Source: a virus
Lineage: Duplodnaviria > Heunggongvirae > Uroviricota > Caudoviricetes
Reading direction: 5' to 3' (one strand)
Virus record (IMG/VR): IMGVR_UViG_2698536506_000010
Length of the DNA stretch: 43,693 nucleotides
Made by a program: the position numbers and the translations under genes. Positions 551 to 23,236 of the stretch are shown piece by piece; position 1 is the first letter of the stretch, and each line of letters starts with the position of its first letter. Below the pieces are notes generated by a model. It did no database searches. It was not told the origin of the DNA and saw only the letters and a program-made list of their open reading frames with translations.

Positions 551-559
551 AATATCTCC

Positions 560-799
560 TCATGCCGCCCGCATAGCGCGGAGGCGTTTTAAGTGTTCTG
601 CTGTTTCGATTTCTTCGGCGATCCGCTCAGCCTGTGCTTTGGTAAGCGGCTCGAATTCATGCTGAAAGCGGCCCATGCTGGCGATACAGGTGCGACCGTT
701 TCTGATGTAGTGGATGACTTCGTTGGTAGCGCGGAGGATTTTGCAGGGCGCCCCGTGGGGATCTGCGTACCAGGTATTAGGCTGGATTATCCTGAACAT
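560..799 (-). CDS. Hypothetical phage protein (79 aa; start taken at internal ATG)
   Basis: Track ORF 560..865 starts with an alternative codon; internal ATG at 799 has an AGGA RBS and reduces the overlap with the upstream gene. Confidence 0.4.
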   Translation of the reverse strand: MFRIIQPNTWYADPHGAPCKILRATNEVIHYIRNGRTCIASMGRFQHEFEPLTKAQAERIAEEIETAEHLKRLRAMRAA

Positions 800-1124: not shown

Positions 1125-1345
1125 CACATCCTCCCAATCTTCTTACGCAACTCCATATTGCTCTGGCACTCCACACACATCGTGCATCCCGGATACGCTT
1201 TCCTGCGCTCATTGCTTAGCTGATCACCGCATTCCTCACAGTGCGTTGCTGATACTGCTGAGTGGTTGAGTCTGTGAGCCTGAATAGCATGGTCGCGCAT
1301 CATCTCTTCGAGAGCGCTGGCCTGGTCGATGATTTCTGATGTCAT
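1124..1345 (-). CDS. TraR/DksA-family C4 zinc-finger protein (73 aa)
   Basis: C-terminal CEECGDQ...CTMCVECQ four-cysteine motif typical of phage TraR/DksA zinc fingers; ATGA overlap with the upstream ORF. Confidence 0.6.
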   Translation of the reverse strand: MTSEIIDQASALEEMMRDHAIQAHRLNHSAVSATHCEECGDQLSNERRKAYPGCTMCVECQSNMELRKKIGRM

Positions 1346-1524
1346 TTGCGACTTCTCCTGCGTTTTTTGGCTGCTCGGCGTGCTGCTGCAATACCCGTCT
1401 TCCCGCCACCAACTGGATAACTGGCATCCATACGTAAAGCAGGAGATATTTCAGAGAAACTCCACGATTTTATTGACGCCATTGACGCGCCGATAAGAGC
1501 TATTGTGTTTGTTAAATGCTTCAT
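1342..1524 (-). CDS. Hypothetical small protein with basic C-terminus (60 aa)
   Basis: GGAG RBS before ATG at 1524; stop overlaps the TraR-like start. Confidence 0.4.
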   Translation of the reverse strand: MKHLTNTIALIGASMASIKSWSFSEISPALRMDASYPVGGGKTGIAAARRAAKKRRRSRK

Positions 1525-1625
1525 CAGTGCTCCATGAACTGTCGGTTAATTCGGTTGAAGGTGAACGCGAGAAAATAAAAAGGCCGACATAGCGACCTTG
1601 TGATTCGTTTGGTTAGCGTCATCCG

Positions 1626-2378
1626 TCATACCTCAAATGCTAACTGAGGGGTAAATCTGTCCCGTTCTGCATCGTAGTCAAGGGAACTGGCGCTGTTATA
1701 GGACTCTATCCTTTCCACGAGTACCGCGGCGCGTGTCTCTTTACTGGCCGGAGCGTATGCTGATTTATCCCATGCTTTGTCGATACCGATGTTTCTGGCG
1801 ACGTTCGTGCTGTCAGCTGAAGATAGCGGGATGTGGCGGAATATGTCGGCGTTCAACATGCGCAGGCCGTGAAGCTTTGTTATCGGATAACCGTTTATGT
1901 CGACAACGTGACGGATGAGATCGCGTAACTTTGCCCGACATGAGCGCGGGCGCTTCGCGTCGTATTCACCCATGCTACCGATGCATACGCGCGGAAATTC
2001 CCGACACAGGCGGAAGAAACGTTCATCGGGCTCGTTCATGTGCCACACCGGCGCGCCGACTACTTTGCCGTGCGGCCACTCCGCGATTAACGCGTCGTTC
2101 TCTTCACTGGTCCCGCCAATAACGTCAGGGATAACAGCAAAAGCAAAGCGAGGGTGATTCATCCAGCGGCCTACAAACGCGTAGTAGTCGTTCCAGTTAA
2201 CAACACGCTTTTTCGTCCAGAAACTGAATGCGCCGTTATCCAGCGCGAAAGACTGGGTGACTTCGCTGGCAAGGGCTAATTGACCGGGGTTAGCGAACGA
2301 GATGAAAGCGTGCCTGCCTTTCCATGCCTTCAGGGCGCATGTGTCCGGCGTAATTGGGCCGCCGTGAAAATGAATCAT
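1626..2378 (-). CDS. tRNA-guanine transglycosylase-like (DpdA-like) protein, candidate 7-deazaguanine DNA-modification enzyme (250 aa)
   Basis: Contains ALDNGAFSFW (compare TGT catalytic motif LTDSGGFQ) and SSADSTNVARNIG (compare TGT FDCVxPTRxARNG); strong AGGAGG RBS; located in the recombination operon. Assignment by recalled motifs only. Confidence 0.5.
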   Translation of the reverse strand: MIHFHGGPITPDTCALKAWKGRHAFISFANPGQLALASEVTQSFALDNGAFSFWTKKRVVNWNDYYAFVGRWMNHPRFAFAVIPDVIGGTSEENDALIAEWPHGKVVGAPVWHMNEPDERFFRLCREFPRVCIGSMGEYDAKRPRSCRAKLRDLIRHVVDINGYPITKLHGLRMLNADIFRHIPLSSADSTNVARNIGIDKAWDKSAYAPASKETRAAVLVERIESYNSASSLDYDAERDRFTPQLAFEV

Positions 2379-2523
2379 GCCGCCTCCTGCCTTTCCCGAT
2401 ATTCCTCAGCGAGCCGCTGCGCCTTTAAGGGATTGCTGACCACTTCACCCCATGGCATTAGCCAGCCGTTACCAATGAAGGGGAGGCACACAGTGCCAAC
2501 CCTGATGTCGTCGTGAGCGTGAG

Positions 2524-2952
2524 TCATAGGATGGACTCCATTTCGTCGATGTAGAGGCCCTGAGCAATCAGGCGGCGACGGCGGGCGGCACGTTCAATGC
2601 ACTCCTGCCGTCTTCCTTCCTGCGATTGCTGAATGGCGCGCCGGGTGAACAGGCGCGATTTTCCTTGCGGCGTTACAACCTTTGGCTTGCTGGCCAGGCT
2701 AAATGCCCGGTCGCAGATGCCGTCTTCGTTGATCCATTTTTCCGACTCAACAATCTGCGCTATCTGTCCGGTACCGCGGGTGATGCCGTTGGCTACCCGG
2801 TTAAACTCAATCAGCGTTACGCCAAACTTCTCAGCGATTTCGCTGCCGGTGACCGGGCGGCCGCGCGTCTGAATCATCCAGATAACGCGCTCACGTAGGC
2901 CTGAGAATTGCCCAGTTCGCCCGGGCCTGCGGTAGAAGGGGGTGCGTTTCAT
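2524..2952 (-). CDS. Hypothetical protein, possible HTH DNA-binding (142 aa)
   Basis: ATG at 2952 overlaps the exo stop (ATGA); segment [21 protein letters not shown] resembles a helix-turn-helix. Confidence 0.45.
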
Positions 2953-3629
2953 TTCCACTGTTCCCCGAACGTGAATCCGATCTCCGCCAGCGCCTCGTCC
3001 ATCTTCTCGATGAACTCCGGCACCATTTCGTTGAAGAGGGACATGTACTGCGGATCCCGCTCAATGACGACGTGGTGAATGCCTTCGCGCTTCATGCGCG
3101 GGTCGTAGTTGGCAAAGAACCAGGCGTCTTTTCCGGTTACCCACATGCTGTACTGCACCTGGGCCATGTACGCAGACTTGATGGCTTCGAAACCGCCAAG
3201 GCGGAATTTCATGAAGTCACGGGAGGTGAACGGGCATTTCAATTCGAGGCCGAAATCGTTACTGCACAGGCCGTCAGGGGAGCACGCGGTGCGCATGCTC
3301 TCGTCACGGAACAGGATCGGAGACTCCGTGACTTTCACGTCTGTGGTGAACTCGAAGAGGGTACGGGCGTCTTCCTCGTACTGCTTGCCCCAGGCCAGCG
3401 CCTTGGCGTTAACCTCTGGCGCGACGCCGGTGCATACCTCGGCGAGCAGCGTGTGGAAGTAGGACATTTTCATGTCTGTCCACTTCTTCCCAGATCGTGG
3501 CTTGGCGATGACGTTGTGCACTTCAGAGGCTGTGATAACGCCGAGGCGCAGCCGGTGCCACGCCTCATCGCCCTGTTGAATAGTGGTTACGTCAATGCCG
3601 GTGCGGGCAAGGATAATTTCTGGTGTCAT
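2949..3629 (-). CDS. exo: Lambda-type exonuclease (Red-alpha / YqaJ family)
   Basis: Near-identical over long stretches to lambda Exo ([61 protein letters not shown]); start placed at MTPEIIL to match the lambda Exo N-terminus. Confidence 0.9.
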
Positions 3630-3630
3630 G

Positions 3631-3918
3631 TCAGCAGTCCTTATGGTCATCCCACGGTCCGAATCCACCCACGTAAACGAAACCTCTCGATGGATCGCTC
3701 ACATGTGTTTCGCGCTGTAGTCGCTCAATTGAATTTCTGTCAATTGCCGCCTGGCGCATCTCAAGTGACTGATGACCTCTGCGACGACCATATTGCTTCC
3801 AATAGGCAGCGCAGGACTTACTGCAAAACTGTGCCCATCCTCTTTTTCGATCAGCAACGCGGGCCATGAATTTGTCCGGGCAACACTTGCAGGTCACTTC
3901 AATGGTTTTCCCAGTCAT
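3631..3918 (-). CDS. Small cysteine-rich (zinc-finger-like) protein between bet and exo (95 aa)
   Basis: CKCCPDK...CSKSC cysteine cluster; ATG at 3918 overlaps the bet stop and the ORF ends 1 nt before the exo start. Confidence 0.5.
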
Positions 3919-4760
3919 GCTGCCGCCTTAGCTTTTTTCTGAAGGAAGTTGAAACCTTTCTGTGCCTCTTCTTCAGTGAGGTCTGACGCCTCAAGAATTG
4001 GCCGTTTGAAGATGTCGCTGCACACTGGGAGGAAGTCTTGCTCCCAGTCTTTATTCAGCGATGTTAAGAGATCGGTTATCGCCTGAAGCGTTTCTTCACT
4101 TGCAGCTGGTGGAAGCGTTTCTGTGGTGTTGCGCGGCGCGACGTCTCTGATATCTACGTCCAGTGATTTGCCTTCCATTTCTTCGGCGGTAGGCTGCTGT
4201 CCAATCTCAGGCCATGCCTTACGCAACGCCTGGGCTTCCGCGCATTTCGCCAGCTGTCCGTATGGGCGCTTTTTCCACATCGCGTTCGGCGCCGTGGTGT
4301 CGCGGCCGCCGGTGGCATAGTTCTCAATCCAGTATTCTTTGGCGCTGAACTCGACGATCTCTCCACTGGGCATGCGCTTGTAGACGGTGTATTTGCACCA
4401 CTGAGGGAAAGTCACTTCGACACCAGTAAGCGTCTGAGTAACGTCAGGGCCGAACTCTGGTTCGCGGGCGCCGGCATAATCGCCGGAACGATCTGCCTGA
4501 ATACGGTAAAGCCCGATTCCCGGCATGACCACGTCGCGCCAGTCGCCTTTACCTGTTTTCGAGTCTTTGACGTACATCGGAACAAGGTGGACAGGTTTGA
4601 GCAACGGGTCGAGCTGGCGGGCGCGGCAGTAATCAAGCGCCATCATTACCGATTCGTCTTTGGCGCCAGGGTAGATGCTGTTCTTCAGTGCACTCCAGGT
4701 GGAGACGTCGACGCCTATCTCCTGAAGCGACTTCGCTGTGATTGTTAATTCGTTTGCCAT
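3915..4760 (-). CDS. bet: Bet/RecT-family single-strand annealing recombinase (Red-beta-like C-terminus)
   Basis: C-terminal region (LQAITDLLTSLNKDWEQDFLPVCSDIFKRPILEASDLTEEEAQKGFNFLQKKA) closely matches lambda Bet; gam-bet-exo order; start at ATG 4760 with GAGGGG RBS (track start at 4775 is TTG). Confidence 0.8.
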   Translation of the reverse strand: MANELTITAKSLQEIGVDVSTWSALKNSIYPGAKDESVMMALDYCRARQLDPLLKPVHLVPMYVKDSKTGKGDWRDVVMPGIGLYRIQADRSGDYAGAREPEFGPDVTQTLTGVEVTFPQWCKYTVYKRMPSGEIVEFSAKEYWIENYATGGRDTTAPNAMWKKRPYGQLAKCAEAQALRKAWPEIGQQPTAEEMEGKSLDVDIRDVAPRNTTETLPPAASEETLQAITDLLTSLNKDWEQDFLPVCSDIFKRPILEASDLTEEEAQKGFNFLQKKAKAAA

Positions 4761-4778
4761 CGTTAATCCCCTCAAAAA

Positions 4779-5063
4779 TTAAAACGGGCAGCCGGTACGG
4801 TGTTCCCAGTCGTATTCTGCCTGGGCGTAAGCAACTGCCGAAATGAAATCGTTGTAGGCCTCGCCAGCTTTATCGCTGCGAAGTCCTTCGTATGGGCTGG
4901 AGTCAATCGGAACCGTGAAGTGGAAGAGGCCGGACGGCTCTTTTGGCATCATGTCGATGATTTTCTGCGCCCGGTCGTCGATCCACTTCTCTTTCTCGTC
5001 GGTGAGCTGCTGCTCAACCCAGCGCCGATCTTCGATGCGGTCGTAAGTGAGGTATGCGTTCAT
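4779..5063 (-). CDS. Gam-like protein (putative RecBCD inhibitor) (94 aa)
   Basis: N-terminus MNAYLTYDRIEDRRW resembles lambda GamS MNAYYIQDRLEAQSW; sits immediately upstream of bet as in lambda. Confidence 0.45.
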   Translation of the reverse strand: MNAYLTYDRIEDRRWVEQQLTDEKEKWIDDRAQKIIDMMPKEPSGLFHFTVPIDSSPYEGLRSDKAGEAYNDFISAVAYAQAEYDWEHRTGCPF

Positions 5064-5070
5064 GGTTGCC

Positions 5071-6042
5071 TCAGTAATGAATTTTCGCGCAGGGGATCAG
5101 GTCATCTTTCAGAGCGGTAAGCACTTCGATAGCCTGCTCGCGGGTTAAGCTGGTTTGGCTGGTGAGCGCGTTAACGATGTTGGTGCCGACCGTTTTGCGG
5201 TGCTTCACATCGGCTTCACGTTTTGCCTGCTCATCGGCGATTCGCTTCTCTTCTGCCAGGCGTTTCTCTTCTGCCTGTTTTGCTTTGAGGCGCTCAGCTT
5301 CCACTGCCGCAGCTTTTTCTCTTTCCGCCCGGGCTTCTGCTTCCTGCTTCTCGCGTGCCGCACGCTGTTCCGCTTCAATGCGCTGGCGTTCCGCCAGTTC
5401 AGCGCGGGCTTTCTCTTCTGCTTCACGGCGCGCTGCGGCTTCAATCTCCGCTTTGTGCTTCGCTTCTGCATCTCGGCGGGCTTGCTCTGCCGCCTCCTGC
5501 TTCAGCCGCTCGTCACGCTCGCGTTGAGCCTGTTCCGCCAGGCGGCGCTGCTCTTCGCGTTCACGGTCAAACTTGTCATTCATCAGCAGAGCCATTTCGT
5601 GGTCTGCTTCGAACTGAATAGCCCGCTGTAGATCGATGCTCTCGTTCATGACCAGCGCTTCGGCGTGTAGCGCGTTCATGGCTTCTTCAGCCTTGATGCG
5701 TTCCTGCTCGGCTTCCCATTCGGTTAGAGGGCGGCGGGTGGCATCTCGCAACTCGTCGCAGGCATCAACGAATCGCTTAATTTCGGCCTCAGCCGGACGC
5801 ACAGCCTCTTTCAGTCGCTTCAGGTACTCACGGCCAGGCTTTTCGATTGCCGTCTTACTGCGGGACACCTGCGCCGCCAGAGAGGCGACACGATCACGGC
5901 CTTTCTTCGTGGACAGGTCCGGCACTTCGCTTACTGCCTGGCGGATTTGCTCGAGATAAGCATCAAGGCCGCCAGCTACGTAAAGCACTGGCGCCTGTTC
6001 CGACTTTATTTCGATGACAGTTAAGTCCGTTACTTCGCTCAT
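5071..6042 (-). CDS. Phage coiled-coil protein (DUF1351-like N-terminus, Ala/Glu/Arg/Lys-rich repeats) (324 aa)
   Basis: Start at ATG 6042 with AGGAGA RBS; long AEQARRDAEAKHKAEIEAAARREAEEKARAELAERQ-type low-complexity coiled coil. Confidence 0.6.
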   Translation of the reverse strand: MSEVTDLTVIEIKSEQAPVLYVAGGLDAYLEQIRQAVSEVPDLSTKKGRDRVASLAAQVSRSKTAIEKPGREYLKRLKEAVRPAEAEIKRFVDACDELRDATRRPLTEWEAEQERIKAEEAMNALHAEALVMNESIDLQRAIQFEADHEMALLMNDKFDREREEQRRLAEQAQRERDERLKQEAAEQARRDAEAKHKAEIEAAARREAEEKARAELAERQRIEAEQRAAREKQEAEARAEREKAAAVEAERLKAKQAEEKRLAEEKRIADEQAKREADVKHRKTVGTNIVNALTSQTSLTREQAIEVLTALKDDLIPCAKIHY

Positions 6043-6118
6043 GGTTTCTCCTGAAATTTGGATGTGCAGATCCCGCCCGCATTGAGCCAGGCCGATCGGT
6101 TGAATAGGGTGGTTGGTA

Positions 6119-6325
6119 TCAGTGAACCATCGGCTCGCCGCGCTCATTCAGCAGCACAACGACGGAATCACTTTTGATGATGGTTTTTTCGAAGATGTTG
6201 AAGGCGTACAGGCCTTTCTCAACGTTCGCAGAGGCGCGATAAGTTTTGCCGTGGTGTTGCAGCATTGTGCCAGGTAAAACCTCGCTACGTGGCACTGATG
6301 CGGTGCCGTAGTGCATTCCAATCAT
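6119..6325 (-). CDS. Hypothetical small protein (68 aa)
   Basis: GAGGTGAAGG RBS before ATG at 6325; start overlaps the stop of the unlisted upstream ORF. Confidence 0.4.
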   Translation of the reverse strand: MIGMHYGTASVPRSEVLPGTMLQHHGKTYRASANVEKGLYAFNIFEKTIIKSDSVVVLLNERGEPMVH

Positions 6326-6480
6326 ACCTTCACCTCTACCTGTACCAGGAGGCCAGCCATATGCATCTGCCAGCGGTTAAGCGTCAGCTTTTCACGCGGT
6401 GCCGATACGGACGTCAGCTGCCACTCGTTATCGTTGAGCTTTTTGGCGGTGTACTTCTTTCCGTTATGGGTGACTGTCAT
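6322..6480 (-). CDS. Hypothetical small protein (52 aa), not in the ORF track
   Basis: Read from sequence: MTVTHNGKKYTAKKLNDNEWQLTSVSAPREKLTLNRWQMHMAGLLVQVEVKV; both ends overlap neighbouring genes in ATGA fashion. Confidence 0.3.
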   Translation of the reverse strand: MTVTHNGKKYTAKKLNDNEWQLTSVSAPREKLTLNRWQMHMAGLLVQVEVKV

Positions 6481-6725
6481 GATGCCTCCCGCTTTTCTTT
6501 GATGTCGGCGCGGAGGTGAATCTCTTTCCCATCAGCTGTCGGGAATATCAGGATGTCATCGCGAACCGCGAGAAGATGGGCCACTGCAAATAGCGCCTCG
6601 TCTGTGACATCAAATTTCTCACCGGTGAACTCGCGAACACCGGGCGCCAATTTGCTCGGCTTTGAACGACCCGCGAAAATTCGCTTCGTCAGGCCTGTAA
6701 AACCTACTGTGATTGGGTTGCTCAT
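6477..6725 (-). CDS. Hypothetical protein (82 aa)
   Basis: AGAGGA RBS before ATG at 6725; first gene downstream of the putative tL1-like terminator. Confidence 0.45.
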   Translation of the reverse strand: MSNPITVGFTGLTKRIFAGRSKPSKLAPGVREFTGEKFDVTDEALFAVAHLLAVRDDILIFPTADGKEIHLRADIKEKREAS

Positions 6726-6844
6726 AAATCCTCTTGGCCTTATCGCGGCGAACGGAACGGTTAATACAAGACTTCTGCGCTAATGGGCGGTGGATGGCCG
6801 CCGGTTGTCATAACTAAGCCGCCTCGGTGAAGCGACTGAGGTAT

Positions 6845-6869
6845 GAAAAAAGCCGCTGGTTAGGCGGCT
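6845..6869 (-). terminator. Rho-independent terminator (tL1-like) on the minus strand
   Basis: Stem AGCCGC/GCGGCT with a 7-nt loop, followed on the minus strand by a U-run (plus-strand AAAAAA at 6845-6850). Confidence 0.45.
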
Positions 6870-7239
6870 ATTGATTGAAATTAAATGAGCGGGGAGATAT
6901 TTGGCTTGCAGCCCTGCAAAATGTGCTATCAAGGAATTGATACTTATGTCGCCACACTCTGCCGCGCTGATCACCATGCTTTGCACAATCAGGTCGGCGC
7001 ATCATGGTGAAATGAACCACTGTTTCGCTTGTAGCTTTAGGTTTACGCATGCTCTTACCCTCTGTCGTTACCCGCTGATGCGGGAGAAATGCTTTGTGGT
7101 GCAGCGCCGGGTGCTTATCTTCCGGTTGCCGTCGATGCAGCTGCAATTCACTGCACTACAAAACATTCCAGTTATTGCCGGGGTATTTATCCGCGCCCGG
7201 CGCGCGCTTTCCCGCTATTCCCCAACAGCAAGAAATCGC

Positions 7240-7581
7240 TTACTCTTTAAGCTCCCCAACAGTAGAAAGGATATGTTCATGCAAACCATGCGGACCGTGT
7301 GCCCTGACTGCGGAAGTGAGATGTTCAACCAGCCCGATGATTTTGACTTTGAGACAAATTTCACCGGCGTCAGTTGTGCTGACTGTGGTCGCGAAATCAC
7401 TAAGGACGATGTTGTCAATCAGGCCACGGACACGGTCAAAAAACAGATCGACGACATGCTCAGGAATTCCCTGAAAGGAGCTGGCTGGAAGTTCAAGTAA
7501 CTTTAAAAGCTCCCCGGTCTGGGTAAGCACTTCGCTGGCGTCTACATTGAGCAGTAGTGGCGCCATTTTTTTATCTGACAT
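7240..7581 (-). CDS. Hypothetical protein in the N-antiterminator position (113 aa); mutually exclusive with 7273..7500 plus
   Basis: First ORF downstream of the OL/pL region, GAGGGG RBS, followed by the 6845..6869 terminator; but no Arg-rich N-terminus like lambda N. Confidence 0.3.
   Translation of the reverse strand: MSDKKMAPLLLNVDASEVLTQTGELLKLLELPASSFQGIPEHVVDLFFDRVRGLIDNIVLSDFATTVSTTDAGEICLKVKIIGLVEHLTSAVRAHGPHGLHEHILSTVGELKE
7273..7500 (+). CDS. Alternative call: small zinc-ribbon protein (75 aa) antisense to the N-position ORF
   Basis: Two CxxC pairs (CPDCG...CADCG), AGGA RBS, protein-like sequence; same codon register as the minus-strand ORF, so composition cannot decide between them. 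Confidence 0.3.
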   Translation: MFMQTMRTVCPDCGSEMFNQPDDFDFETNFTGVSCADCGREITKDDVVNQATDTVKKQIDDMLRNSLKGAGWKFK

Positions 7582-7777
7582 ATACACCCCTCTGATTGTT
7601 TACCGTCAGCCCCTCGCAAAGAGCTGCTGGTAAATCGTTTAGCCATAATTGCCGCTCTTCCTGAGCCCGCCTATGGTCCGACGCATGGTTTACTGTCGCG
7701 CCGTTCGACTGACCGAATCTCCACTTCGCCGCTGGCTAACTTCGCTCAGCTGTCGATGTTTCGTTTCGATGGGGTAA

Positions 7778-7854
7778 ATTTAGCGTGATGCTAAATTATG
7801 CGCAATAGCAAAATGCTAAATTGTTGAATGGTTTTATTTAGCGTATTGATTAAT
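7778..7854. promoter_or_regulatory. OL operator cluster (three 19-bp palindromes) with leftward pL
   Basis: ATTTAGCgtgatGCTAAAT (7778-7796), cAATAGCaaaatGCTAAAT (about 7803-7821), ATTTAGCgtattGATTAAT (7836-7854); the same half-site recurs in OR. Confidence 0.6.
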
Positions 7855-7892
7855 AAGCGATTAAAAATTTACAGCGAAGGAATTCGGGACGT

Positions 7893-7916
7893 AAAAAAGC
7901 CCGCGCGATGGCGGGC
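7893..7916 (-). terminator. Rho-independent terminator downstream of the repressor gene
   Basis: GCCCGC-gcgatg-GCGGGC hairpin with flanking A/T runs, 20 nt after the cI stop. Confidence 0.5.
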
Positions 7917-7936
7917 TTGAGGGGTTTTGCGTGAGG

Positions 7937-8614
7937 TTATGGGATGTTTAGTATTTTGGCATCAACCACAACGCCGATGATTTTGCAGTTTCCATTAATT
8001 TCTAGCATTGGATATGCGGGGTTAAGGGGCTTTAGGAAGCGTCTGCCGGCATCGATTACAAGCTTCTTAAAGGTCGCTTCGTTATCGCCTTCTAGCTTCG
8101 CGACAACCAGCTTTCCGTTGCGCGGCTCGACTTCAGGATCAACAAGTATCGCTGCTCCCTCGGGTATGCTCAGTCCAGCCGGGGAGGTCATAGAATCCCC
8201 TTTAACGTCCAGCCAGAATGAATCTTCTGAGCAGTCAACAGTCGTGTCATACCAGCGATCTATCGCTCTTCGGTGATAAGGTTCTACAGCTTCCATCCAT
8301 TGCCCCGCGCTTACCCAGCTGATTACAGGATAACTTCCTTTTGTCTCGTTCAGTCCTCGAAATGCAACGTTCGAAGGTTCTTCACTGGCGTGTAAAACAT
8401 CCATCCAGCCAAAAGGCAGATCAAGCGCAGTTTCAATTTTGCGAGCCATCTTATCGCCGATATTGCGATGAGGGTTTGGTCCCAGTAGCTGGCTAAGCGC
8501 AGCCGGACTTGTCTCGATGAGCTCGGCAAACTGCGCTTTGGTCATTCCAGACTCGTGCTGACGCTTCTCGTACAGCGCTTCCAGGTTGGCTTTTCTGATT
8601 TCTTTATTTTCCAT
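7937..8614 (-). CDS. cI: CI-like prophage repressor (N-terminal HTH, C-terminal S24/LexA-like peptidase domain) (226 aa)
   Basis: HTH region (MTKAQFAELIETSPAALSQLLG) plus S24-type C-terminus (GDSMTSP...GKLVVAKLEG); divergent from the cro-like gene with operators between; start placed at internal ATG 8614 to leave the operator region non-coding. Confidence 0.8.
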   Translation of the reverse strand: MENKEIRKANLEALYEKRQHESGMTKAQFAELIETSPAALSQLLGPNPHRNIGDKMARKIETALDLPFGWMDVLHASEEPSNVAFRGLNETKGSYPVISWVSAGQWMEAVEPYHRRAIDRWYDTTVDCSEDSFWLDVKGDSMTSPAGLSIPEGAAILVDPEVEPRNGKLVVAKLEGDNEATFKKLVIDAGRRFLKPLNPAYPMLEINGNCKIIGVVVDAKILNIP

Positions 8615-8631
8615 ACCTGCATTGTTACTGC

Positions 8632-8699
8632 TTTTAGCAAAATGATAAATGTGCAAATTGCTAAATGATGCTTGCGTAGTATTTAGCATAACGCTAAAC
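8632..8699. promoter_or_regulatory. OR operator cluster with divergent pRM and pR
   Basis: TTTTAGCaaaatGATAAAT (8632-8650), a GCTAAAT half-site (8660-8666), ATTTAGCataacGCTAAAC (8681-8699); candidate pR TTGCGT-N17-TAAACT reading toward cro. Confidence 0.6.
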
Positions 8700-8730
8700 T
8701 CCAAATCAAACGACTCACCCGGAGACACCA

Positions 8731-8964
8731 ATGAGAACTGAACTACACCGCTGGCGCAAGGCCGCCACTACCGACGAATGGGCGCAGCTCGCAAAGTTGG
8801 CTAACACGACGCCAGGTTACCTGGACCAGATCGCCTACGGAAATCGCCGGGCATTTCCAGAAATGGCATCTGCTATCGAGAAAGGCACGAAGAATTTTCA
8901 CCGCCAGGCTCCGGTCCTAAAAGAAAGCCTGGTATTCGCATCGCCGCGTGATACTGCGGCCTAA
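8731..8964 (+). CDS. cro: Cro-like HTH regulator (YdaS-family resemblance) (77 aa)
   Basis: First rightward gene after OR, GGAG RBS; motif AKLANTTPGYLDQIAYGNRR...PEMASAIEKGTKN resembles YdaS/Cro-type HTH proteins. Confidence 0.65.
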   Translation: MRTELHRWRKAATTDEWAQLAKLANTTPGYLDQIAYGNRRAFPEMASAIEKGTKNFHRQAPVLKESLVFASPRDTAA

Positions 8965-8981
8965 CCACGAAAGGGAAAGCA

Positions 8982-9527
8982 ATGCATTCACTTGCGTATC
9001 AACAAGGTAACAAATTTTCGCCAACGGCGATGATTTACCAGAATCGCCGGGAGCCTGATTCCGCGGCGTTAAACATCGATGGGATCCGCGCTGCTGTTCG
9101 CGCCTGGGCAGCTGATTGCCGAAGCCGTGAATTTGTCGCCGCGCTGATCGTGGAAGAGTGGCGGGCGTCCGGCGGAACCGGTCTAGATATCCCGACTGAC
9201 TCGCACCGCCAGATGCAGAAAGTGTTTCGATGGATTGATGGCGATACCGAATACGCCGCCAACAACATTCGCCAGCTGGCCCCGGCAATCATGTCGGTCC
9301 TGCCGCTGGAGTACCGAAACCGTCTGGCGCCGCAGAACGACACGATGTCGCTGATCGCCTCTGCGATGAAAGAGTGTGCCGAGGCTAAACAGGCCGTGCT
9401 GCTGGACGCTCCAGAGCATCAGAAGCTCAAAGAGGTAAGCGAGGGTATAGCGTCGCTGTTCCGCCTCATGCCGGAGCAGGTAGGACCGCTGATGACGATG
9501 GTTACATCGATGCTGGGGGTTATATGA
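8982..9527 (+). CDS. YdaT-family protein in the cII position (181 aa)
   Basis: Pattern WRASGGTGLDIP...QKVFRWIDGDTEYAANNIRQLAPAIMSVLPLEYRNRL matches recalled E. coli YdaT; immediately follows the YdaS-like gene. Confidence 0.55.
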   Translation: MHSLAYQQGNKFSPTAMIYQNRREPDSAALNIDGIRAAVRAWAADCRSREFVAALIVEEWRASGGTGLDIPTDSHRQMQKVFRWIDGDTEYAANNIRQLAPAIMSVLPLEYRNRLAPQNDTMSLIASAMKECAEAKQAVLLDAPEHQKLKEVSEGIASLFRLMPEQVGPLMTMVTSMLGVI

Positions 9528-13408: not shown

Positions 13409-13662
13409 TGTCTGACTGGAATATTGCTGCAAAGCCGCAGGAAGAACGCGACAAGGTTAATGTTGACCTGGCAGCCTCCGGCGTGGCCTACAAAGAGCGC
13501 CTGAATATGCCGGTTATCGCCGAGCAGGTAGCTCGTGAGCAACCAGAGCATCTACGAGAGTATTTCATGGATCGCGTGCGGCACTATCGCGAGCAGAGCG
13601 TTGCATTGCCTAAGGCATCTGATCCTCGCTACATTGAAATGACTGAGCAAAATGCAAAATAA
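13408..13662 (+). CDS. Hypothetical protein (84 aa)
   Basis: ATG overlaps the upstream stop. Confidence 0.4.
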
Positions 13663-13678
13663 ATTTCAGGAGATTCAA

Positions 13679-13939
13679 ATGGAAAATAGCATGAGCATCA
13701 CAACGATTCTTGAAAGAGAAAGGGAGCTTGATGATCTTGTTAAGGTGTGCCTCGATGAGCTTGAGGTGATTGACATCCATGGACAGGTTTACTCAATTCC
13801 TCTTTCCCACCTAACGAACGCAGAGCAGGTGGTACATTGGGTCTGGAAGATTGCTGAGAGAGGTGATTTCGCCATGGATGTTGTTCGTAAATTTACTGAA
13901 GTTGCGTCCCATCATGTGGGGTTTGACGCTAAAAAATAA
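13679..13939 (+). CDS. Hypothetical protein (86 aa)
   Basis: AGGAG RBS before the internal ATG at 13679. Confidence 0.4.
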   Translation: MENSMSITTILERERELDDLVKVCLDELEVIDIHGQVYSIPLSHLTNAEQVVHWVWKIAERGDFAMDVVRKFTEVASHHVGFDAKK

Positions 13940-13989
13940 ATCGCCAAGGACCGATTTAATAGCTATACACATGTTTTACATTCCGCTCG

Positions 13990-14018
13990 CATCTTAACCA
14001 AATCTTTCTTGGTATAAT
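13990..14018 (+). promoter_or_regulatory. Candidate sigma-70 promoter with extended -10 (TGgTATAAT)
   Basis: TATAAT at about 14013-14018 preceded by TG; weak -35; about 40 nt upstream of the 14058 ORF. Confidence 0.4.
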
Positions 14019-14057
14019 GATTTTTTACAGGCGAATGACGTGTGAGGTCCGGGATTT

Positions 14058-14255
14058 ATGACTTGTGAAGTATGTAACAAACAACCCCTTGGACGAAGGG
14101 ACCCGCCTCTTCCATGCATGGTCTTGCAAGGCGATAAATCCGTTAACTTCAGCCATCACGGACGCGAAGCAAACGAGCGTTATTACAAATGCTCGGAATG
14201 CGGTCATGAGTGGATGAGAGAGACAGGAAATTGCGGCGAAGGCTGGATTCCTTAA
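14058..14255 (+). CDS. Small zinc-ribbon protein (65 aa)
   Basis: CEVCN...C...CSECGH cysteine pairs; own candidate promoter upstream. Confidence 0.45.
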   Translation: MTCEVCNKQPLGRRDPPLPCMVLQGDKSVNFSHHGREANERYYKCSECGHEWMRETGNCGEGWIP

Positions 14256-14458
14256 CTATATATTGTCGCTATTCGCAAATTGATTTTCTCAAATCATCCC
14301 GCCATAATTAAGTCGCAGTCGGCCTGAACACCCGATTGTGACTTCTGCGCATTTAAGGGGACTTAAATGCGACCACAATCTGAAATCCTCACCTTGTCAC
14401 AGATGCAGAAATGCACCTGCGATTTTCTGCATTCTGCGGTTTCCGTTAAGGAGGCCGT

Positions 14459-17606: not shown

Positions 17607-18114
17607 GAAGAGTGGCGCGGCCGGGATCGTTTGTTCAGTGGCTACAATTATCGCAATCGTGATGAATGCGGGCCATGTCAGGACTAACGAGCGCGGGCTG
17701 GAGTTAATCGGCAACGCTGAATCTTGCCGACGTGATCCGTATGTGTGCCCGGCAGGTGTGCTTACTGACGGAATGGGTAATACGCATGGCGTAAAGCTCG
17801 GAACCGTTAAGTCTGACCAGCAGATCGCAGCCGAGTGGGAGCGCAACATCCTTGATGCTGAGTTCTGTGTTAACCGCTACGGGAATGGCAGAAAGCTATC
17901 TGACAATACTTTCTCGGCAGCTGTATCGGTAACGTTTCGTGCTGGCTGCGGAAACATGCGCACCTCCACGATGTTCTCTCTTCTCAGAAGTGGGGATATC
18001 ACGGCGGCATGCAACCAGTTCCCTCGCTGGGTATGGGGGGGAGGCAAGGTTCTGCCTGGTCTGGTTACTCGTGCCGGAAAAGAAGAAGCGCTCTGCCTGG
18101 ACGGTGTGAAATGA
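17584..18114 (+). CDS. Endolysin, lysozyme type with putative N-terminal SAR (signal-anchor-release) segment
   Basis: Gly/Ala-rich hydrophobic N-terminus ([20 protein letters not shown]) followed by lysozyme-like E...C/D...T region; GTG start overlapping the holin end. Confidence 0.75.
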
Positions 18115-18572
18115 GCCGGTTAACAGCAATCATCTGTGCTTTCGTTATATGTCTGCTGGTCTCCATGGACTGGGCGATTAACCATTACCGCGAAAACGCC
18201 ATCACCTACAAAGAACAGCGCGATAAAGCCACTGAGAAACTCAGCCTGGCTAACGCCACCATAAAAGACATGCAGACCCGCCAGCGAGAGGTGGCTGCAC
18301 TGGATGCCAAATACACCGGAGAACTGGCTGATGCGAAAGAAACCATTGAGCGTCTGCATAGCGATGTCATTGCTGGCCGTAAGCGGCTGCAGCTCAACGC
18401 AAACTGTCCCGCGAACGGAACGGCCGGCGCCAGCAGCATGGGCGATGCTTCCGGCCCCCGACTTACTGACTCCGCTGAACGGGATTATTTCACCCTCAGA
18501 GAGCGAATCGTCACAGTGACGAAGCAGGTCGGCTATCTGCAGGACTACATCAAAGAGCAATGTATTGAGTGA
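18111..18572 (+). CDS. Rz: Rz i-spanin
   Basis: Strong similarity to lambda Rz ([16 protein letters not shown]..., [31 protein letters not shown]); ATGA overlap with the endolysin. Confidence 0.9.
18331..18519 (+). CDS. Rz1: Rz1 o-spanin lipoprotein, embedded in Rz in the +1 frame
   Basis: Lipobox LLAVSGC, Pro-rich, C-terminal [11 protein letters not shown] as in lambda Rz1. Confidence 0.8.
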
Positions 18573-18635
18573 TTTGGCTTTCAATAATTTGGGAATGTGC
18601 AATATATTAACCACCAAAACTATATGGAGGTTAAT

Positions 18636-19319
18636 ATGTCTGCTTGGGAGTGTCCTTTTTGCGGTAGGTTGGCTGTTTATGATTCAATGCAGAAAAAACG
18701 TGATAGCTTCTCAGTTTCTGGGGATACCAAGTTTGGAGTCCTCGTTTTCGAGTCTTTCGTAAACATCTGCCCAAACCCAGAATGCAAAGAATTTACATAC
18801 ATTACAACGATGTCTACAGGAAAATATCAGGCCGGTTACTATATACCTGATGATCTCCTAGAGACGTGGGTTAACAGGCCTAACGGAATTTTTAAACAGT
18901 TTCCTGATTATGTGCCGAAGCCGATTTTAGATGACTATAAAGAGGCGGTCTTAATCAAAAACCTTTCACCTAAAGCTTCTGCAACTTTGTCACGCAGGTG
19001 TCTTCAAGGAATGATTAGGAGCGTCTGGAATGTTAAGCCCGCGAGACTTGTTGACGAAATAAAAGCCATCGAGGGGCAGATTGAATCGAATGTTTGGAAA
19101 GCAATCGATGCCGTAAGGAATATTGGCAACATTGGCGCTCATATGGAAAATGATATCAATATCATTGTTGATGTCGATCCAGACGAAGCTGAGATGCTGA
19201 TAGGCCTCCTCGAGCTTCTGATTCAAGAGTGGTATGTTGAAAAGCATGAAAGGCAACTACGAATTGACGCCATTACCGCTTTAGCGGCTGAGAAAAAAGC
19301 ATTAAAACAAACAAAATAA
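18636..19319 (+). CDS. Zinc-ribbon plus DUF4145-domain protein, candidate defence or abortive-infection effector (227 aa)
   Basis: N-terminal CPFCG...CPNPEC zinc ribbon; C-terminus matches the DUF4145 pattern (LSPKASATLSRRCLQGMIRSV...AIDAVRNIGNIGAHMEND...DPDEAEMLIGLLELLIQEW); AT-rich relative to the backbone; GGAGG RBS; own terminator. Confidence 0.6.
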   Translation: MSAWECPFCGRLAVYDSMQKKRDSFSVSGDTKFGVLVFESFVNICPNPECKEFTYITTMSTGKYQAGYYIPDDLLETWVNRPNGIFKQFPDYVPKPILDDYKEAVLIKNLSPKASATLSRRCLQGMIRSVWNVKPARLVDEIKAIEGQIESNVWKAIDAVRNIGNIGAHMENDINIIVDVDPDEAEMLIGLLELLIQEWYVEKHERQLRIDAITALAAEKKALKQTK

Positions 19320-19341
19320 ACCGCCTACGGGCGGTTTTTTG
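19318..19341 (+). terminator. Rho-independent terminator, possibly bidirectional
   Basis: CCGCC-tacg-GGCGG hairpin flanked by an A-run upstream and TTTTTT downstream. Confidence 0.6.
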
Positions 19342-19406
19342 TTGCCATCACCATGGGGTAGCCCATCGTAATGGCAATATCCACATAAGCGGATAGAGAG
19401 GCCTCA

Positions 19407-19610
19407 ATGTCCGACACCTACCAAATCACTATCACCACTACATCGAAAGATACGTTCACTGGCACGATGAATCGAAGCCAGCCTGAAATCGTTAATGGGT
19501 TCGTGGCATTGGCTACCGACACGGGTGAATGGCGTTACTTTCGGCCGGACAGCGTGGAGCAGTTCCACTTTGTACCAGTGTTAGAAGAAAAAGCATCAGA
19601 GGACGCTTAG
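19407..19610 (+). CDS. Hypothetical small protein (67 aa) in the accessory island
   Basis: GAGAGG RBS; Thr-rich N-terminus; no family recognised. Confidence 0.4.
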   Translation: MSDTYQITITTTSKDTFTGTMNRSQPEIVNGFVALATDTGEWRYFRPDSVEQFHFVPVLEEKASEDA

Positions 19611-19633
19611 TTGCCGCCCCCTGATGGGATTTG

Positions 19634-19807
19634 TTACTGATCTACCATTACACTATGAATAGTAAGGCCGTTCTTATCTTTGAAAACCACCGTTAAAGGC
19701 AATTCTTTGTCTTGTTCTGGGTTCCCTGTTTTGAGAGAGAGGACATCAATTTTCAATTCATAATTCCCAGTACTGATAAGCATTTTTGCGAAGTCTTCGA
19801 GTGTCAT
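19634..19807 (-). CDS. Hypothetical small protein (57 aa), AT-rich, minus strand
   Basis: Perfect AGGAGG RBS 5 nt before the internal ATG at 19807 (track start is TTG); convergent with the 19407 ORF. Confidence 0.4.
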   Translation of the reverse strand: MTLEDFAKMLISTGNYELKIDVLSLKTGNPEQDKELPLTVVFKDKNGLTIHSVMVDQ

Positions 19808-19865
19808 TATTCCTCCTGTTAAAACCATATTATCGGGAAGTGGCACATAACCTTTAAGGAAATAT

Positions 19866-20303
19866 ATGGCGACCAAACAAAAAACTGGCCGCCCTTCTGA
19901 TTATTTACCAGAGGTGGCTGCTGACATCTGCTCACTGCTTGCCGATGGGGAAAGCCTGCGCAAAGTTTGTGATCGACCAGGGATGCCTAACAAGGCGACG
20001 GTGTTCCGCTGGCTGGCGCAGCATGCAGAGTTTCGCGACCAATACGCGAAAGCCACTGAGACACGCGCTGATGCGATTTTCGAAGATATGTTCGATATTG
20101 CTGACGGTGTGAATGAAGAGGCTGCCGCAGTAGCTAAAGCACGTCTTCGCATTGACACGCGAAAATGGGCCCTGGCCCGCATGAACCCGAAGAAGTACGG
20201 CGACAAAGTCAGCCAGGAAATCGACCACAAATCATCTGACGGAACCATGACCCCAAAGCCAACAATCATCCAGCTACTACCTGTTGAGCCAAAGCATGAG
20301 TAA
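19866..20303 (+). CDS. terS: Terminase small subunit
   Basis: Immediately upstream of and overlapping the large terminase; HTH-like N-terminus (GRPSDYLPEVAADICSLLADGESLRKVC). Confidence 0.7.
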   Translation: MATKQKTGRPSDYLPEVAADICSLLADGESLRKVCDRPGMPNKATVFRWLAQHAEFRDQYAKATETRADAIFEDMFDIADGVNEEAAAVAKARLRIDTRKWALARMNPKKYGDKVSQEIDHKSSDGTMTPKPTIIQLLPVEPKHE

Positions 20304-21886: not shown

Positions 21887-23236
21887 ATGAATGACAAATT
21901 AACTCTCGCCGTCAACCATGCGTTGAACGATGCGCGGATGGCTCGCGCCCGTATGGGGCTGATGGCGCCTACAATGGGGCTGGACAACAAGCGCCACTCT
22001 GCATGGTGCGAGTATGGATTCCCTGAGCAGGTAACCTACGAAAACCTTTATGCCCTGTACCGACGCGGTGGTATTGCCCACGGCGCAGTAGAGAAACTGG
22101 TGGGCAAGTGCTGGCAGACTAACCCGGAAATCATCGAGGGTGATCAGGCAGACAAAAAGCGCAAAGAAACCGCCTGGGAGAAAAAGGCCAAACAGGTATT
22201 CACCAACCGATTCTGGCGCTCATTCTCTGAGGCCGATCGCCGTCGTCTGGTGGGCCGTTATGCTGGCATCCTTCTGCACGTCCGCGATGAAAAAGACTGG
22301 AACCTTCCGGTAACCAAAGGGCGAGGTCTTCAGAAAATATCGGTGGCGTGGGCAGGATCGCTTACGGTGAGCGAGTGGGACACTGGCCTGAACTCGAAGA
22401 CGTACGGCCAGCCTCAGATGTGGCAGTACGCCGAACGCTTGCCGAATGGTTCAAGTCGCCGCGTCAATATCCACCCCGATCGCGTTTTCATCCTTGGTGA
22501 TTACTCAGACGATGCTATTGGCTTCCTTGAGCCAGCTTATAACGCCTTTGTAAGCCTGGAGAAGGTAGAGGGTGGATCCGGCGAGTCATTCCTGAAGAAC
22601 GCCGCGCGCCAGCTTAATGTCAACTTTGAGAAGGAAATCGACTTCAACAATCTTGCGTCACTTTATGGCGTGAGCATTGACGAGTTGCAGGATAAGTTTA
22701 ACGAAGTTGCCGGGGAAATGAACCGTGGCAACGATGTTTTGATGACAACCCAAGGGGCCACGGTCACACCGCTGGTGACTGCTGTAGCTGATCCTTCAGC
22801 GACCTATAACGTCAACCTGCAAACGGCTGCCGCCGGTGTTGATATCCCGACGCGCATTCTGGTTGGTAATCAGCAGGCCGAGCGCTCCAGCACCGAAGAC
22901 CAGAAATACTTTAATGCTCGTTGTCAGTCGCGACGCGTAGACCTCTCTTTCGAAATAGAGGACTTCTGCGACAAGCTTATCGATCTACAAATCGTAGACT
23001 CAGTCAGTCAGAAGGCTGTTATCTGGGATGACCTTAACGAACAGACCGGTACTGAGAAGCTCACTAACGCCAAGACCATGGGCGAAATTAACCAGACCAT
23101 GCAGGGCAGCGGCGAAGAGCCAGCGTTCAGCCGTGAAGAGATTCGTACAGCTGCGGGTTATGACAATGACGACGAAGAGCCGTTAGGAGAAGAGGATGGC
23201 GACGAACAAGACGAAGCCACCAATTCTACCGCGTAA
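21887..23236 (+). CDS. Putative portal protein (449 aa)
   Basis: Large protein immediately after the terminase with an acidic C-terminal tail; start placed after the moron terminator; assignment mainly positional. Confidence 0.6.
   Translation: MNDKLTLAVNHALNDARMARARMGLMAPTMGLDNKRHSAWCEYGFPEQVTYENLYALYRRGGIAHGAVEKLVGKCWQTNPEIIEGDQADKKRKETAWEKKAKQVFTNRFWRSFSEADRRRLVGRYAGILLHVRDEKDWNLPVTKGRGLQKISVAWAGSLTVSEWDTGLNSKTYGQPQMWQYAERLPNGSSRRVNIHPDRVFILGDYSDDAIGFLEPAYNAFVSLEKVEGGSGESFLKNAARQLNVNFEKEIDFNNLASLYGVSIDELQDKFNEVAGEMNRGNDVLMTTQGATVTPLVTAVADPSATYNVNLQTAAAGVDIPTRILVGNQQAERSSTEDQKYFNARCQSRRVDLSFEIEDFCDKLIDLQIVDSVSQKAVIWDDLNEQTGTEKLTNAKTMGEINQTMQGSGEEPAFSREEIRTAAGYDNDDEEPLGEEDGDEQDEATNSTA

Follow-up and report, generated by a model that had tools for sequence, protein, structure and literature searches.

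What is the island of AT-rich DNA that lies between the lysis and terminase genes of this prophage, and does it encode a defence system that has not been described before? The window, i.e. the whole stretch of 43,693 nucleotides analysed here, belongs to a caudovirus record (IMGVR_UViG_2698536506_000010). The original prediction had read its positions 18590 to 19860 as a candidate phage-defence or abortive-infection module of novel make-up, in which a zinc-ribbon/DUF4145 protein would be joined by two small open reading frames (ORF2 and ORF3 in the following). The three reading frames, the zinc-ribbon motifs, the RNIGNIGAH segment, the ribosome-binding sites and the flanking genes are all in place. 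Yet there is no new three-gene system: the DUF4145 gene is by itself a new member of a defence family that is already known and consists of single genes. By analogy with the characterized members of that family, it probably (at a rough estimate, 0.75) encodes a prophage-carried antiphage immunity protein from a sister clade of RAZR (PD-T7-4), that is, a ring-triggered RNase in whose function ORF2 and ORF3 are uninvolved.

The gene, delineated by the list of open reading frames, its motifs and a profile match, occupies positions 18636..19319 of the plus strand and encodes 227 amino acids. The predicted DUF4145 assignment is confirmed by Pfam (E=1.3e-9; score 38.4 bits, cutoff 23.1), and a search of NCBIfam with this protein and the products of ORF2 and ORF3 returned no match. 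PHROG 1305, a family labelled ‘DNA binding protein’, also matches; we found no experimental basis for this label. The N-terminal domain (residues 1–81; 18636..18878, plus strand) is a zinc finger of the zinc-ribbon type and the predicted sensor, as delimited by its cysteine knuckles, the AF2 model and hhalign. Its Cys4 arrangement comprises C6-P-F-C9 (within CPFCG, residues 6–10) and C45-P-N-P-E-C50 (CPNPEC, residues 45–50); in the clade alignment, C45 and C50 are invariant, and C6 and C9 are at least 90% conserved. In the AF2 model, this zinc-finger domain (ZFD) is all-β, with a long β-hairpin (residues 53–81) following C50. A proline-rich linker, in which P82, P90, Y92 and P94 are invariant within the clade, leads into the DUF4145/HEPN domain, the predicted RNase (together residues 82–200; 18879..19235, plus strand), which forms the α-helical bundle of the HEPN fold. 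Its putative active site, R161-N-I-G-N165-I-G-A-H169 (R-x3-N-x3-H), is encoded at nucleotides 19116–19142, and R161, N165 and H169 are invariant across 40 clade sequences. The resulting R-x7-H spacing is one residue longer than the canonical HEPN Rx4-6H, as it also is in RAZR and in DUF4145 domains generally. Finally, a C-terminal helical tail (residues 201–227; 19236..19319 including the stop codon, plus strand) with an invariant R206 is part of an AF2 helix (residues 182–226) that runs on from the HEPN core.

This single-gene architecture is not new. PD-T7-4 was found in a functional screen in 2022 (Vassallo et al., 2022, PMC9519451), and its mechanism, under the name RAZR, was solved in 2026 (Zhang et al., 2026, PMC13017515; PDB 9y9c), so that the claim of an undescribed system has to be given up. 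RAZR^Ec from E. coli UMB1727 is an experimentally validated abortive-infection defence (PMC9519451, PMC13017515) that works as a single gene, is non-toxic alone, and depends on R146 and H154 of its R-x7-H motif; its triggers are large ring assemblies, either the portal or an Erf-like recombinase (PMC13017515). The window protein matches the PADLOC profile for RAZR, PDLC04109, with E=5.7e-12 (residues 3–203 against profile positions 13–185 of 211), as do 40/40 members of its clade. Since true RAZR^Ec, with its sequence taken from a PDB alignment, scores far higher against the same profile (1e-102), the window protein represents a remote sister clade. An hhalign comparison with 42 RAZR representatives supports homology over the full length (probability 98.85%, E=4.1e-17), at an identity of about 26% (profile) to 32% (HEPN only); BLASTP aligns the HEPN half alone. 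A Foldseek search of the whole model against the PDB yielded nothing significant and did not retrieve 9y9c, a result that is uninformative, given that the model of RAZR^Ec itself reaches a TM score of only 0.39–0.45 against 9y9c. A homologue search that started from a RAZR fragment returned mostly N-terminally truncated calls of 130–186 residues, and one E. coli RAZR-like copy is a pseudogene with an in-frame stop.

The two proteins share an N-terminal Cys4 zinc ribbon, a linker and a C-terminal DUF4145/HEPN domain, in 219 residues in RAZR^Ec and 227 in the window protein. In the hhalign alignment, C6/C9 correspond to C16/C19 of RAZR and C45/C50 to C49/C52, while R161/N165/H169 match R146/N150/H154. 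The linker (RAZR residues 66–79) aligns over the motif P..(x)..PD(x)xP with a one-residue insertion; P66 and D77 are conserved within RAZR, and a DY.EA...SPK motif is common to both families. Both families also have a hypervariable ZFD, are carried on mobile elements and have no conserved partner gene. Still, the differences are considerable. The second knuckle is Cx4C instead of CxxC, and the terminal hairpin of the ZFD has 13+14 residues compared to 5+4 in RAZR, making it some 18 residues longer in total. The RAZR interface residue V21 aligns with R11, and the oligomerization residues D179/D180 have no exact counterparts, the aligned residues being Q197/W199, with an acidic residue at 198. 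A third oligomerization residue, R184, aligns with the invariant R206, albeit in a gapped stretch of low confidence. The HEPN motif reads RNIGNIGAHME instead of RIVGNQAVHPGE, and the tail forms a WYVE.HER helix in place of ITRPKEIE...LPE...RD. Lastly, the window gene, known here from its sequence, occupies a lambdoid lysis-terminase slot. Because the ZFDs differ in knuckle spacing, hairpin length and the V21 position, the class of trigger may differ from that of RAZR.

Other relatives are less close. BxaP (PMC10799925) and Ishtar1 (bioRxiv 10.64898/2026.07.06.735840) likewise feature a HEPN domain of the DUF4145 branch as presumed RNase effector, but at their N-terminus. Across these and the other DUF4145 proteins of conflict systems, the partner domains differ from that of the window protein (a HEAT-like C-terminus, a β/α C-domain, REase, helicase and others); zinc-ribbon fusions were already included when DUF4145 fusions were catalogued (Anantharaman et al., 2013, PMC3710099). 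DS-38 (WP_001313577.1), a validated single-protein defence of HEPN and zinc-finger parts from DefensePredictor, was explicitly contrasted with PD-T7-4 (PMC13092281). It comprises 366 residues, with a retron-IX-like HEPN domain at its N-terminus and several zinc fingers arrayed at its C-terminus. We considered it as a member of the window clade and rejected it for its opposite domain order, its size and its multi-finger array (Table S8 sequence).

Within the clade, the two halves of the protein have evolved very differently. [quoted passage not shown] At the nucleotide level, this creates a mosaic, with identities of 0.67 in the ZFD (versus locus L006, with saturated synonymous sites) and 0.96 in the HEPN half. 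The nuclease half, with a dN/dS of 0.04–0.08, is under strong purifying selection, whereas the ZFD half is hypervariable and exchanged among alleles by recombination. As saturation of synonymous sites makes the dN/dS of the ZFD not estimable, positive selection is not separable there from ancient allelic divergence combined with recombination. The window protein and its K. aerogenes allele illustrate this pattern, being nearly identical in the HEPN half (97%) and divergent in the ZFD (64%); for the Kluyvera allele, the corresponding values are 87% and 17%. The same relation as with the K. aerogenes allele holds between RAZR^Ec and RAZR^Kv from Klebsiella variicola, which belongs to the RAZR^Ec clade, not to that of the window protein; the two are 78% identical, and the divergent ZFD of RAZR^Kv re-targets defence (PMC13017515). 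An informal look across loci revealed no simple pattern linking ZFD type to portal family, as the PF06381 portal occurs with very different ZFDs.

These observations bear on the most serious alternative, in which the same HEPN RNase effector is coupled to another mode of sensing: the enlarged ZFD would recognize a different class of phage protein, or a nucleic acid, and activation would not be templated by a ring. The restriction of ZFD similarity to the knuckles, with BLASTP covering just the HEPN half, would be in line with this idea, as would the Cx4C knuckle and much longer hairpin, the loss of V21 and D179/D180, and the PHROG label. However, that label is without traceable experimental basis, and the hhalign comparison places the ZFD in register, with both knuckles matched. 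Moreover, the linker motif (P...PD.xP, DY.EA...SPK), by which the ZFD of RAZR is coupled to HEPN, is shared by the two families, and a variable ZFD combined with a conserved HEPN domain fits the RAZR specificity model. We therefore regard sensing of this other kind as unlikely.

The genomic setting of the gene defines it as cargo. On its left lies Rz (i-spanin; 18111..18572, plus strand; PF03245, E=1.2e-44), a conserved flank outside the defence gene, and on its right a bidirectional intrinsic terminator, the hairpin AAACCGCCTACGGGCGGTTT with a T-run (19318..19337), which was called on both strands, as its appearance had led one to expect. The slot bounded by Rz and the terminator is filled variously in related prophages, by the DUF4145 gene, by pRha or by unrelated small genes (encoding 74 or 66 aa). 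The lysis-terminase junction is thus an accessory site, as originally proposed, and the DUF4145 gene is exchangeable prophage cargo. Homologues have varying neighbours in Klebsiella, Enterobacter, Cronobacter, Serratia, Kluyvera, Vibrio and Streptococcus.

A 5′ leader of about 64 nt (18573..18635, plus strand) travels with the gene, which starts exactly 64 nt past the Rz stop in K. aerogenes, E. bugandensis and C. sakazakii prophages. The leader contains an invariant block, TGCAATATATTAACC (18598–18612), which is identical in four diverged prophage types, occurs in 13/13 fetched loci that have the gene at this distance from Rz and is missing from slot variants without the gene. Within the block lies a candidate −10 element, TATATT (18603–18608), and relatives carry TTAACA-16 nt-TATATT in their leaders, suggesting that the block is a candidate promoter. 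The argument for it is conservation, since a consensus σ70 scan of the window made no strong call ahead of the gene (the −35 element matches at only 3/6 positions). A Shine-Dalgarno sequence, GGAGG (18626–18630), precedes the ATG at 18636 by 5 nt. Of the ribosome-binding site and terminator that had been ascribed to the island, the former is indeed the gene's own, but the latter belongs to the flank: the terminator and the following TTGCCATCACC are conserved in a prophage (L005) in which an unrelated 66-aa gene replaces the DUF4145 gene. The terminator and ORF2 are consequently a conserved right flank, not cargo. In these respects, the gene resembles prophage morons and hotspot cargo (lambda/HK97-type; P2 hotspots, PMC9519451), with its deviant composition, its own 5′ block and alternative cargo between conserved late genes. 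It differs in that the terminator is a shared flank and the promoter putative.

Together with lysis genes on one side and packaging genes on the other, the gene forms part of the Q-dependent late operon. This position, the lack of a strong promoter call and the PHROG label would also suit a late gene that benefits the phage itself, such as an RNase or a zinc-ribbon nucleic-acid-binding regulator for host shut-off or transcript processing in its own lytic cycle. We consider this very improbable. The presence/absence polymorphism of the slot implies that the gene is dispensable for the phage, and an invariant 5′ block accompanies it. In addition, the homologues carried by Vibrio and Streptococcus prophages belong to the lysogeny module, where they either follow cI immediately or have a consensus promoter of their own, and those relatives that have been tested are Abi proteins protecting the host.

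The two small reading frames do not belong to the cargo. ORF2 (67 aa; 19407..19610, plus strand) is a small backbone gene (phrog_6581, E=2.8e-27). ORF3 (57 aa; 19634..19807, minus strand), with an AGGAGG 4 nt ahead of its ATG at 19807, is an orphan confined to Enterobacteriaceae, where it is linked with the Sf6-type small terminase subunit gene terS (19866..20303, plus strand; PF20901, E=6e-45; phrog_1482), which forms the right-hand backbone. The ORF3 protein has no match in Pfam, PHROG, PADLOC or NCBIfam and none in phages; its homologues form just seven clusters, with an identical protein on 403 contigs. A three-gene defence or toxin-immunity module would be in keeping with the adjacency of the genes in the window and their good ribosome-binding sites, with the ORF2-like sequence that follows the DUF4145 gene in four types of prophage, and with the AT-richness that ORF3 shares with the DUF4145 gene. 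Against this, ORF3 always adjoins ORF2 and terS, whatever occupies the slot, and the three stay together when the slot holds the 74-aa, pRha or 66-aa gene, as in L005, which has ORF2 and no DUF4145 gene. Conversely, in four loci (L008–L011) ORF2 is interrupted by stops or frameshifts although the neighbouring DUF4145 gene is intact, ORF3 is missing from other DUF4145 loci (L006–L018), and the homologues in Serratia, Kluyvera, Vibrio and Streptococcus have unrelated neighbours. Likewise, 15 sequenced phages have a homologue of ORF2, and 0/15 are represented in the records that match the DUF4145 protein, a terminator separates the two genes, and RAZR is a single gene, non-toxic alone. ORF2 and ORF3, uncoupled from the DUF4145 gene across prophages, are not partners or immunity factors of the predicted RNase, and a joint module is highly implausible; what survives of the original proposal is the defence assignment of the DUF4145 protein, made here by analogy with its experimentally validated family (PD-T7-4 = RAZR).

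Base composition tells a similar story. The island is indeed AT-richer, with a GC content of 0.430 where the whole window has 0.524 (z=−2.0; 4.6% of stretches of this size reach values as low), but this bias is modest and non-uniform: the DUF4145 gene has 0.418 and ORF3 0.374, whereas ORF2, at 0.495 and with a GC3 of 0.57, is backbone-like. A region of much lower GC lies elsewhere in the window, at 39–41 kb.

That the gene is an inactive remnant is barely conceivable: while copies of altered length exist (L023 with 121 aa, L026 with 236 aa) and an E. coli RAZR-like gene has an in-frame stop, the window copy retains its full length and every one of the Cys, R, N and H residues, occurs identically in three complete E. 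coli genomes and has a HEPN half with the low dN/dS given above.

Returning to the RAZR-like immunity protein, its defence activity and trigger are inferred from RAZR, and its mode of action can be outlined accordingly in conditional terms. In the lysogen, the protein would be made as an inactive oligomer, as suggested by RAZR^Ec (PMC13017515). Recognition of a protein of a superinfecting phage by the ZFD would reposition the paired HEPN domains to yield an active RNase, whose non-specific cleavage of single-stranded RNA (tRNA, rRNA and mRNA) would stop translation. The infected cell would abort the infection, so that the lysogen population and the prophage would be protected, and the ZFD allele would determine which phages are sensed, with no role for ORF2 or ORF3. 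As the prophage's own portal gene (21887–23236) follows in the same cluster of late genes, at a distance of about 2.6 kb, the question of self-activation arises; the prophage also encodes a RecT-family recombinase (3915–4775). We tentatively speculate that this very large sister clade may sense phage assemblies other than T7-type portals or Erf-like rings, with the enlarged ZFD as a specificity cassette that recombination shuffles among prophages, under selection both for breadth against incoming phages and for blindness to the prophage's own portal and RecT.

While no new kind of system is revealed, a common enterobacterial prophage gene, annotated as ‘DUF4145 domain-containing protein’ or, in PHROGs, as ‘DNA binding protein’, is now assigned to the RAZR/PD-T7-4 family, which supplies a testable mechanism, and the stretch between Rz and the terminator is defined as an exchangeable cargo site in these lambdoid prophages. 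Moreover, the natural alleles, with their near-identical nuclease halves and deeply diverged sensor halves, are ready-made chimeras for mapping how RAZR-type proteins choose their triggers, and they are equally useful for asking how a prophage-borne copy tolerates its own portal.

The DUF4145 gene resides in a lambdoid prophage, on a 1,271-bp island (18590-19860) bordered on the left by holin, SAR-type endolysin and Rz genes and on the right by the genes for an Sf6-type small terminase (terS) and the large terminase, which bears out its predicted placement between lysis and terminase genes. ORF calling returned the same three reading frames as the original prediction: the DUF4145 gene (18636..19319, plus strand, 227 aa), ORF2 (19407..19610, plus strand, 67 aa) and ORF3 (19634..19807, minus strand, 57 aa). 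The CPFCG, CPNPEC and RNIGNIGAH motifs and both ribosome-binding sites can be read directly in the sequence, and the hairpin at 19318-19337, previously described as a bidirectional-looking terminator, receives terminator calls on either strand. The island is 100% identical in three of 5,426 genomes, all complete E. coli chromosomes, where PGAP labels its products as a "DUF4145 domain-containing protein" and two hypothetical proteins. Its GC content is 0.430, compared to 0.524 for the window (z=-2.0), and 4.6% of equal-sized windows are equally low. The supposed AT-richness holds for the DUF4145 gene (GC 0.418, GC3 0.41) and ORF3 (GC 0.374), but not for ORF2, which is backbone-like (GC 0.495, GC3 0.57).

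The composition scan also revealed a second small low-GC patch (0.42-0.45) at 13600-14400, in the early/replication region. The lowest GC content (0.32-0.37) is found at 39304-42284, in a minus-strand operon of gtrA (PF04138), gtrB (GT2, PF00535), a 154-aa ORF and a DUF6056 membrane protein gene. This operon, located downstream of the beta-helix tailspike gene it adjoins (37335-39311), is a typical prophage O-antigen modification (serotype-conversion) module. Furthermore, the island and late genes are an exact match to E. coli 20A24, but in the early region of the window (left arm, 1-9000), where a RecT/YqaJ recombination module is located, coordinates carried over from the comparison locus L001 gave no ORF. 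Relative to the L001 copy, the prophage thus appears mosaic.

In the 227-aa protein, Pfam detects the expected DUF4145 domain above the gathering cutoff (E=1.3e-9, aa 102-189), and PHROGs assigns the protein to phrog_1305 (E=1e-33). PADLOC matches it to PD-T7-4 (E=5.7e-12), aligning aa 3-203 with profile positions 13-185 of 211, and the match therefore takes in the N-terminal domain. PD-T7-4 came from a functional selection in E. coli (PMC9519451) and has been renamed RAZR, for ring-activated zinc-finger RNase (Zhang et al., Nature 2026; PMC13017515). It combines an N-terminal Cys4 zinc ribbon (ZFD) with a C-terminal DUF4145 domain, a divergent HEPN RNase, and requires R146 and H154 for defence (PMC13017515).

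Compared with the E. coli member RAZR^Ec (sequence from PDB entry 9y9c), the window protein yields E=2.9e-6 in phmmer, while BLASTP aligns 111 residues at 32% identity, all of them in the HEPN half. With hhalign, 40 aligned relatives of the window protein match an alignment of 42 full-length RAZR representatives with a probability of 98.85% (E=4.1e-17) over 182 columns, covering residues 1-215 of the window protein and 11-193 of RAZR. It pairs CPFCG with CPHCG, C45/C50 with C49/C52, and R161/N165/H169 with R146/N150/H154 of RAZR. C45, C50, R161, N165 and H169 are invariant among the 40 relatives; for C6 and C9, conservation is 90% or higher. PD-T7-4 is essentially the sole PADLOC family matched by these relatives, and all 40 match it (best E=3e-15; RAZR^Ec itself, for calibration, scores 1e-102). 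A model of RAZR^Ec (pLDDT 92.6) shows the same order of elements as the window protein, although its terminal ZFD hairpin is much shorter. A Foldseek search with the window model did not retrieve 9y9c, a test that is powerless because the RAZR^Ec model itself reaches only TM 0.39-0.45 to this structure. At the level of sequence, these comparisons establish the domain architecture and show that the active-site motif and the zinc ligands are intact. The protein has the RAZR architecture and is homologous to RAZR over its whole length, but represents a remote sister clade at ~26% identity.

RAZR/PD-T7-4 is accordingly the closest known system, while BxaP and Ishtar1, other DUF4145 defence proteins, as well as DS-38 differ in architecture. 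The proposal of an undescribed system does not stand, since single-gene RAZR/PD-T7-4 is already known (PMC9519451, PMC13017515), and zinc-ribbon fusions of DUF4145 already appear in a 2013 HEPN survey (PMC3710099). The gene is a divergent addition to the RAZR kind rather than a new system; our literature search turned up no experiments on this particular clade. The clade is very large, comprising more than 7,700 90%-identity clusters at E<=1e-3; RAZR^Ec's own family comprises 3,695 50%-identity clusters. Full-length phrog_1305 homologues with 39-50% identity occur in the temperate Streptococcus phages PH15 (gp07) and SM1 (gp7; L018 3980-4660). They are labelled 'DNA binding protein', a name that was probably prompted by the zinc ribbon and likely misdescribes a RAZR-like HEPN protein.

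The two halves of the protein differ markedly in conservation, with a mean identity to the window protein of 39% for aa 1-81 versus 73% for aa 82-200; as in RAZR, the variable half would be the sensor half. In these two segments, the K. aerogenes allele (L006) is 64% and 97% identical to the window protein, respectively, and a Kluyvera/Klebsiella/Rahnella group ~20% and 82-87%. In the DNA comparison with K. aerogenes, the HEPN half is 96% identical (dS 0.15, dN/dS 0.08), whereas the ZFD half is 67% identical with saturated synonymous sites. This difference shows that recombination has swapped the sensor module between long-diverged alleles, beyond merely faster evolution. The sequences record purifying selection on the nuclease half, and the sensor half has diversified in modular fashion.

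The DUF4145 gene starts exactly 64 nt after Rz in prophages of K. aerogenes, E. bugandensis and C. sakazakii, regardless of the downstream terminase type. The 64-nt leader carries an invariant block, TGCAATATATTAACC, and GGAGG; the block is present in 13/13 fetched loci with the gene at this position and in none of the slot variants without it. On the other side, the terminator is directly followed by the short motif TTGCCATCACC (19338-19348; equivalents in L005, L006, L008, L010, L012 and L016). Terminator, motif and the start of ORF2 are kept even in an E. coli prophage with an unrelated 66-aa gene in the slot between Rz and terminator (L005 3826-4026), and Serratia and Kluyvera prophages have TTGCCATCACC with two tandem terminators. 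The slot's conserved right junction is marked by this motif.

Viewed from ORF3, whose identical protein is found on 403 contigs, ORF3, ORF2 and Sf6-type terS always occur together, whether the slot holds the 227-aa gene, a 74-aa gene (L021 3995-4219), a 174-aa pRha-family gene (L025 4004-4528, L027 4057-4581) or a truncated DUF4145 gene. Nonsense or frameshift mutations break ORF2 beside intact DUF4145 genes in Enterobacter and Cronobacter prophages, none of the 15 sequenced phages with ORF2 homologues is represented in the records that match the DUF4145 protein, and other DUF4145 loci have no ORF3 homologue. ORF2 and ORF3, once considered possible partners or immunity factors in a three-gene arrangement, are by this evidence mere neighbours. 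Leader, slot and neighbour data therefore define a single-gene cargo, consisting of one gene and its 5' leader. Among more distant clade members, those of Serratia and Kluyvera occupy the lysis-terminase junction, a Vibrio prophage carries its copy immediately downstream of cI, and Streptococcus phages have theirs in the lysogeny module; the PH15 gene possesses a consensus extended -10 promoter of its own.

In two otherwise near-identical prophages, the DUF4145 gene is truncated (121 aa, L023 3989-4354) or altered in length (236 aa, L026 3912-4622), which suggests occasional inactivation of the RNase. A RAZR^Ec-like E. coli gene (L004 3937-4593; also L002, L003), ~91% identical in the HEPN half, adjoins an integrase gene; it is interrupted by an in-frame stop after the first zinc knuckle and before the second, and is annotated as a 168-aa protein without the first CxxC. 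Many RAZR-clade database entries are likewise 130-186 aa long, with a zinc finger that is partly or entirely missing.

RAZR by itself is non-toxic and becomes active on binding directly to phage proteins that form rings, namely the T7, T3 and SECphi18 portals and the Erf-like SECphi27 protein Gp77, around which it forms a 24-mer; activated RAZR cleaves ssRNA non-specifically, which blocks translation and leads to abortive infection (PMC13017515). By analogy to RAZR^Ec, the window protein would form an inactive oligomer in the lysogen and recognize a phage protein assembly via its ZFD; this would reposition the HEPN dimers, and non-specific ssRNA cleavage would arrest translation and abort the infection. 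We consider the nature of the trigger the weakest step. The ZFDs of the window protein and RAZR have little in common beyond the knuckles, and the RAZR oligomerization residues are only partly matched: R184 pairs with the invariant R206, but D179/D180 are not conserved.

The DUF4145 gene lies just upstream of a 449-aa gene of the same late cluster (21887-23236; L001 23298-24647), which RefSeq/PGAP names 'anti-CBASS protein Acb1 family protein'. As this gene follows terL and matches Phage_portal_3 (PF06381, E=7e-17), it encodes the portal protein, and its name is probably a naming artefact. The prophage additionally has a gene for a RecT-family annealing protein (3915-4775), and RecT-type proteins form rings. 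Since the triggers of RAZR^Ec are portals and an Erf-like annealing protein, the prophage's own portal and RecT-family protein raise the question of self-tolerance. The clade provides a useful, naturally occurring set of sensor-swap alleles.
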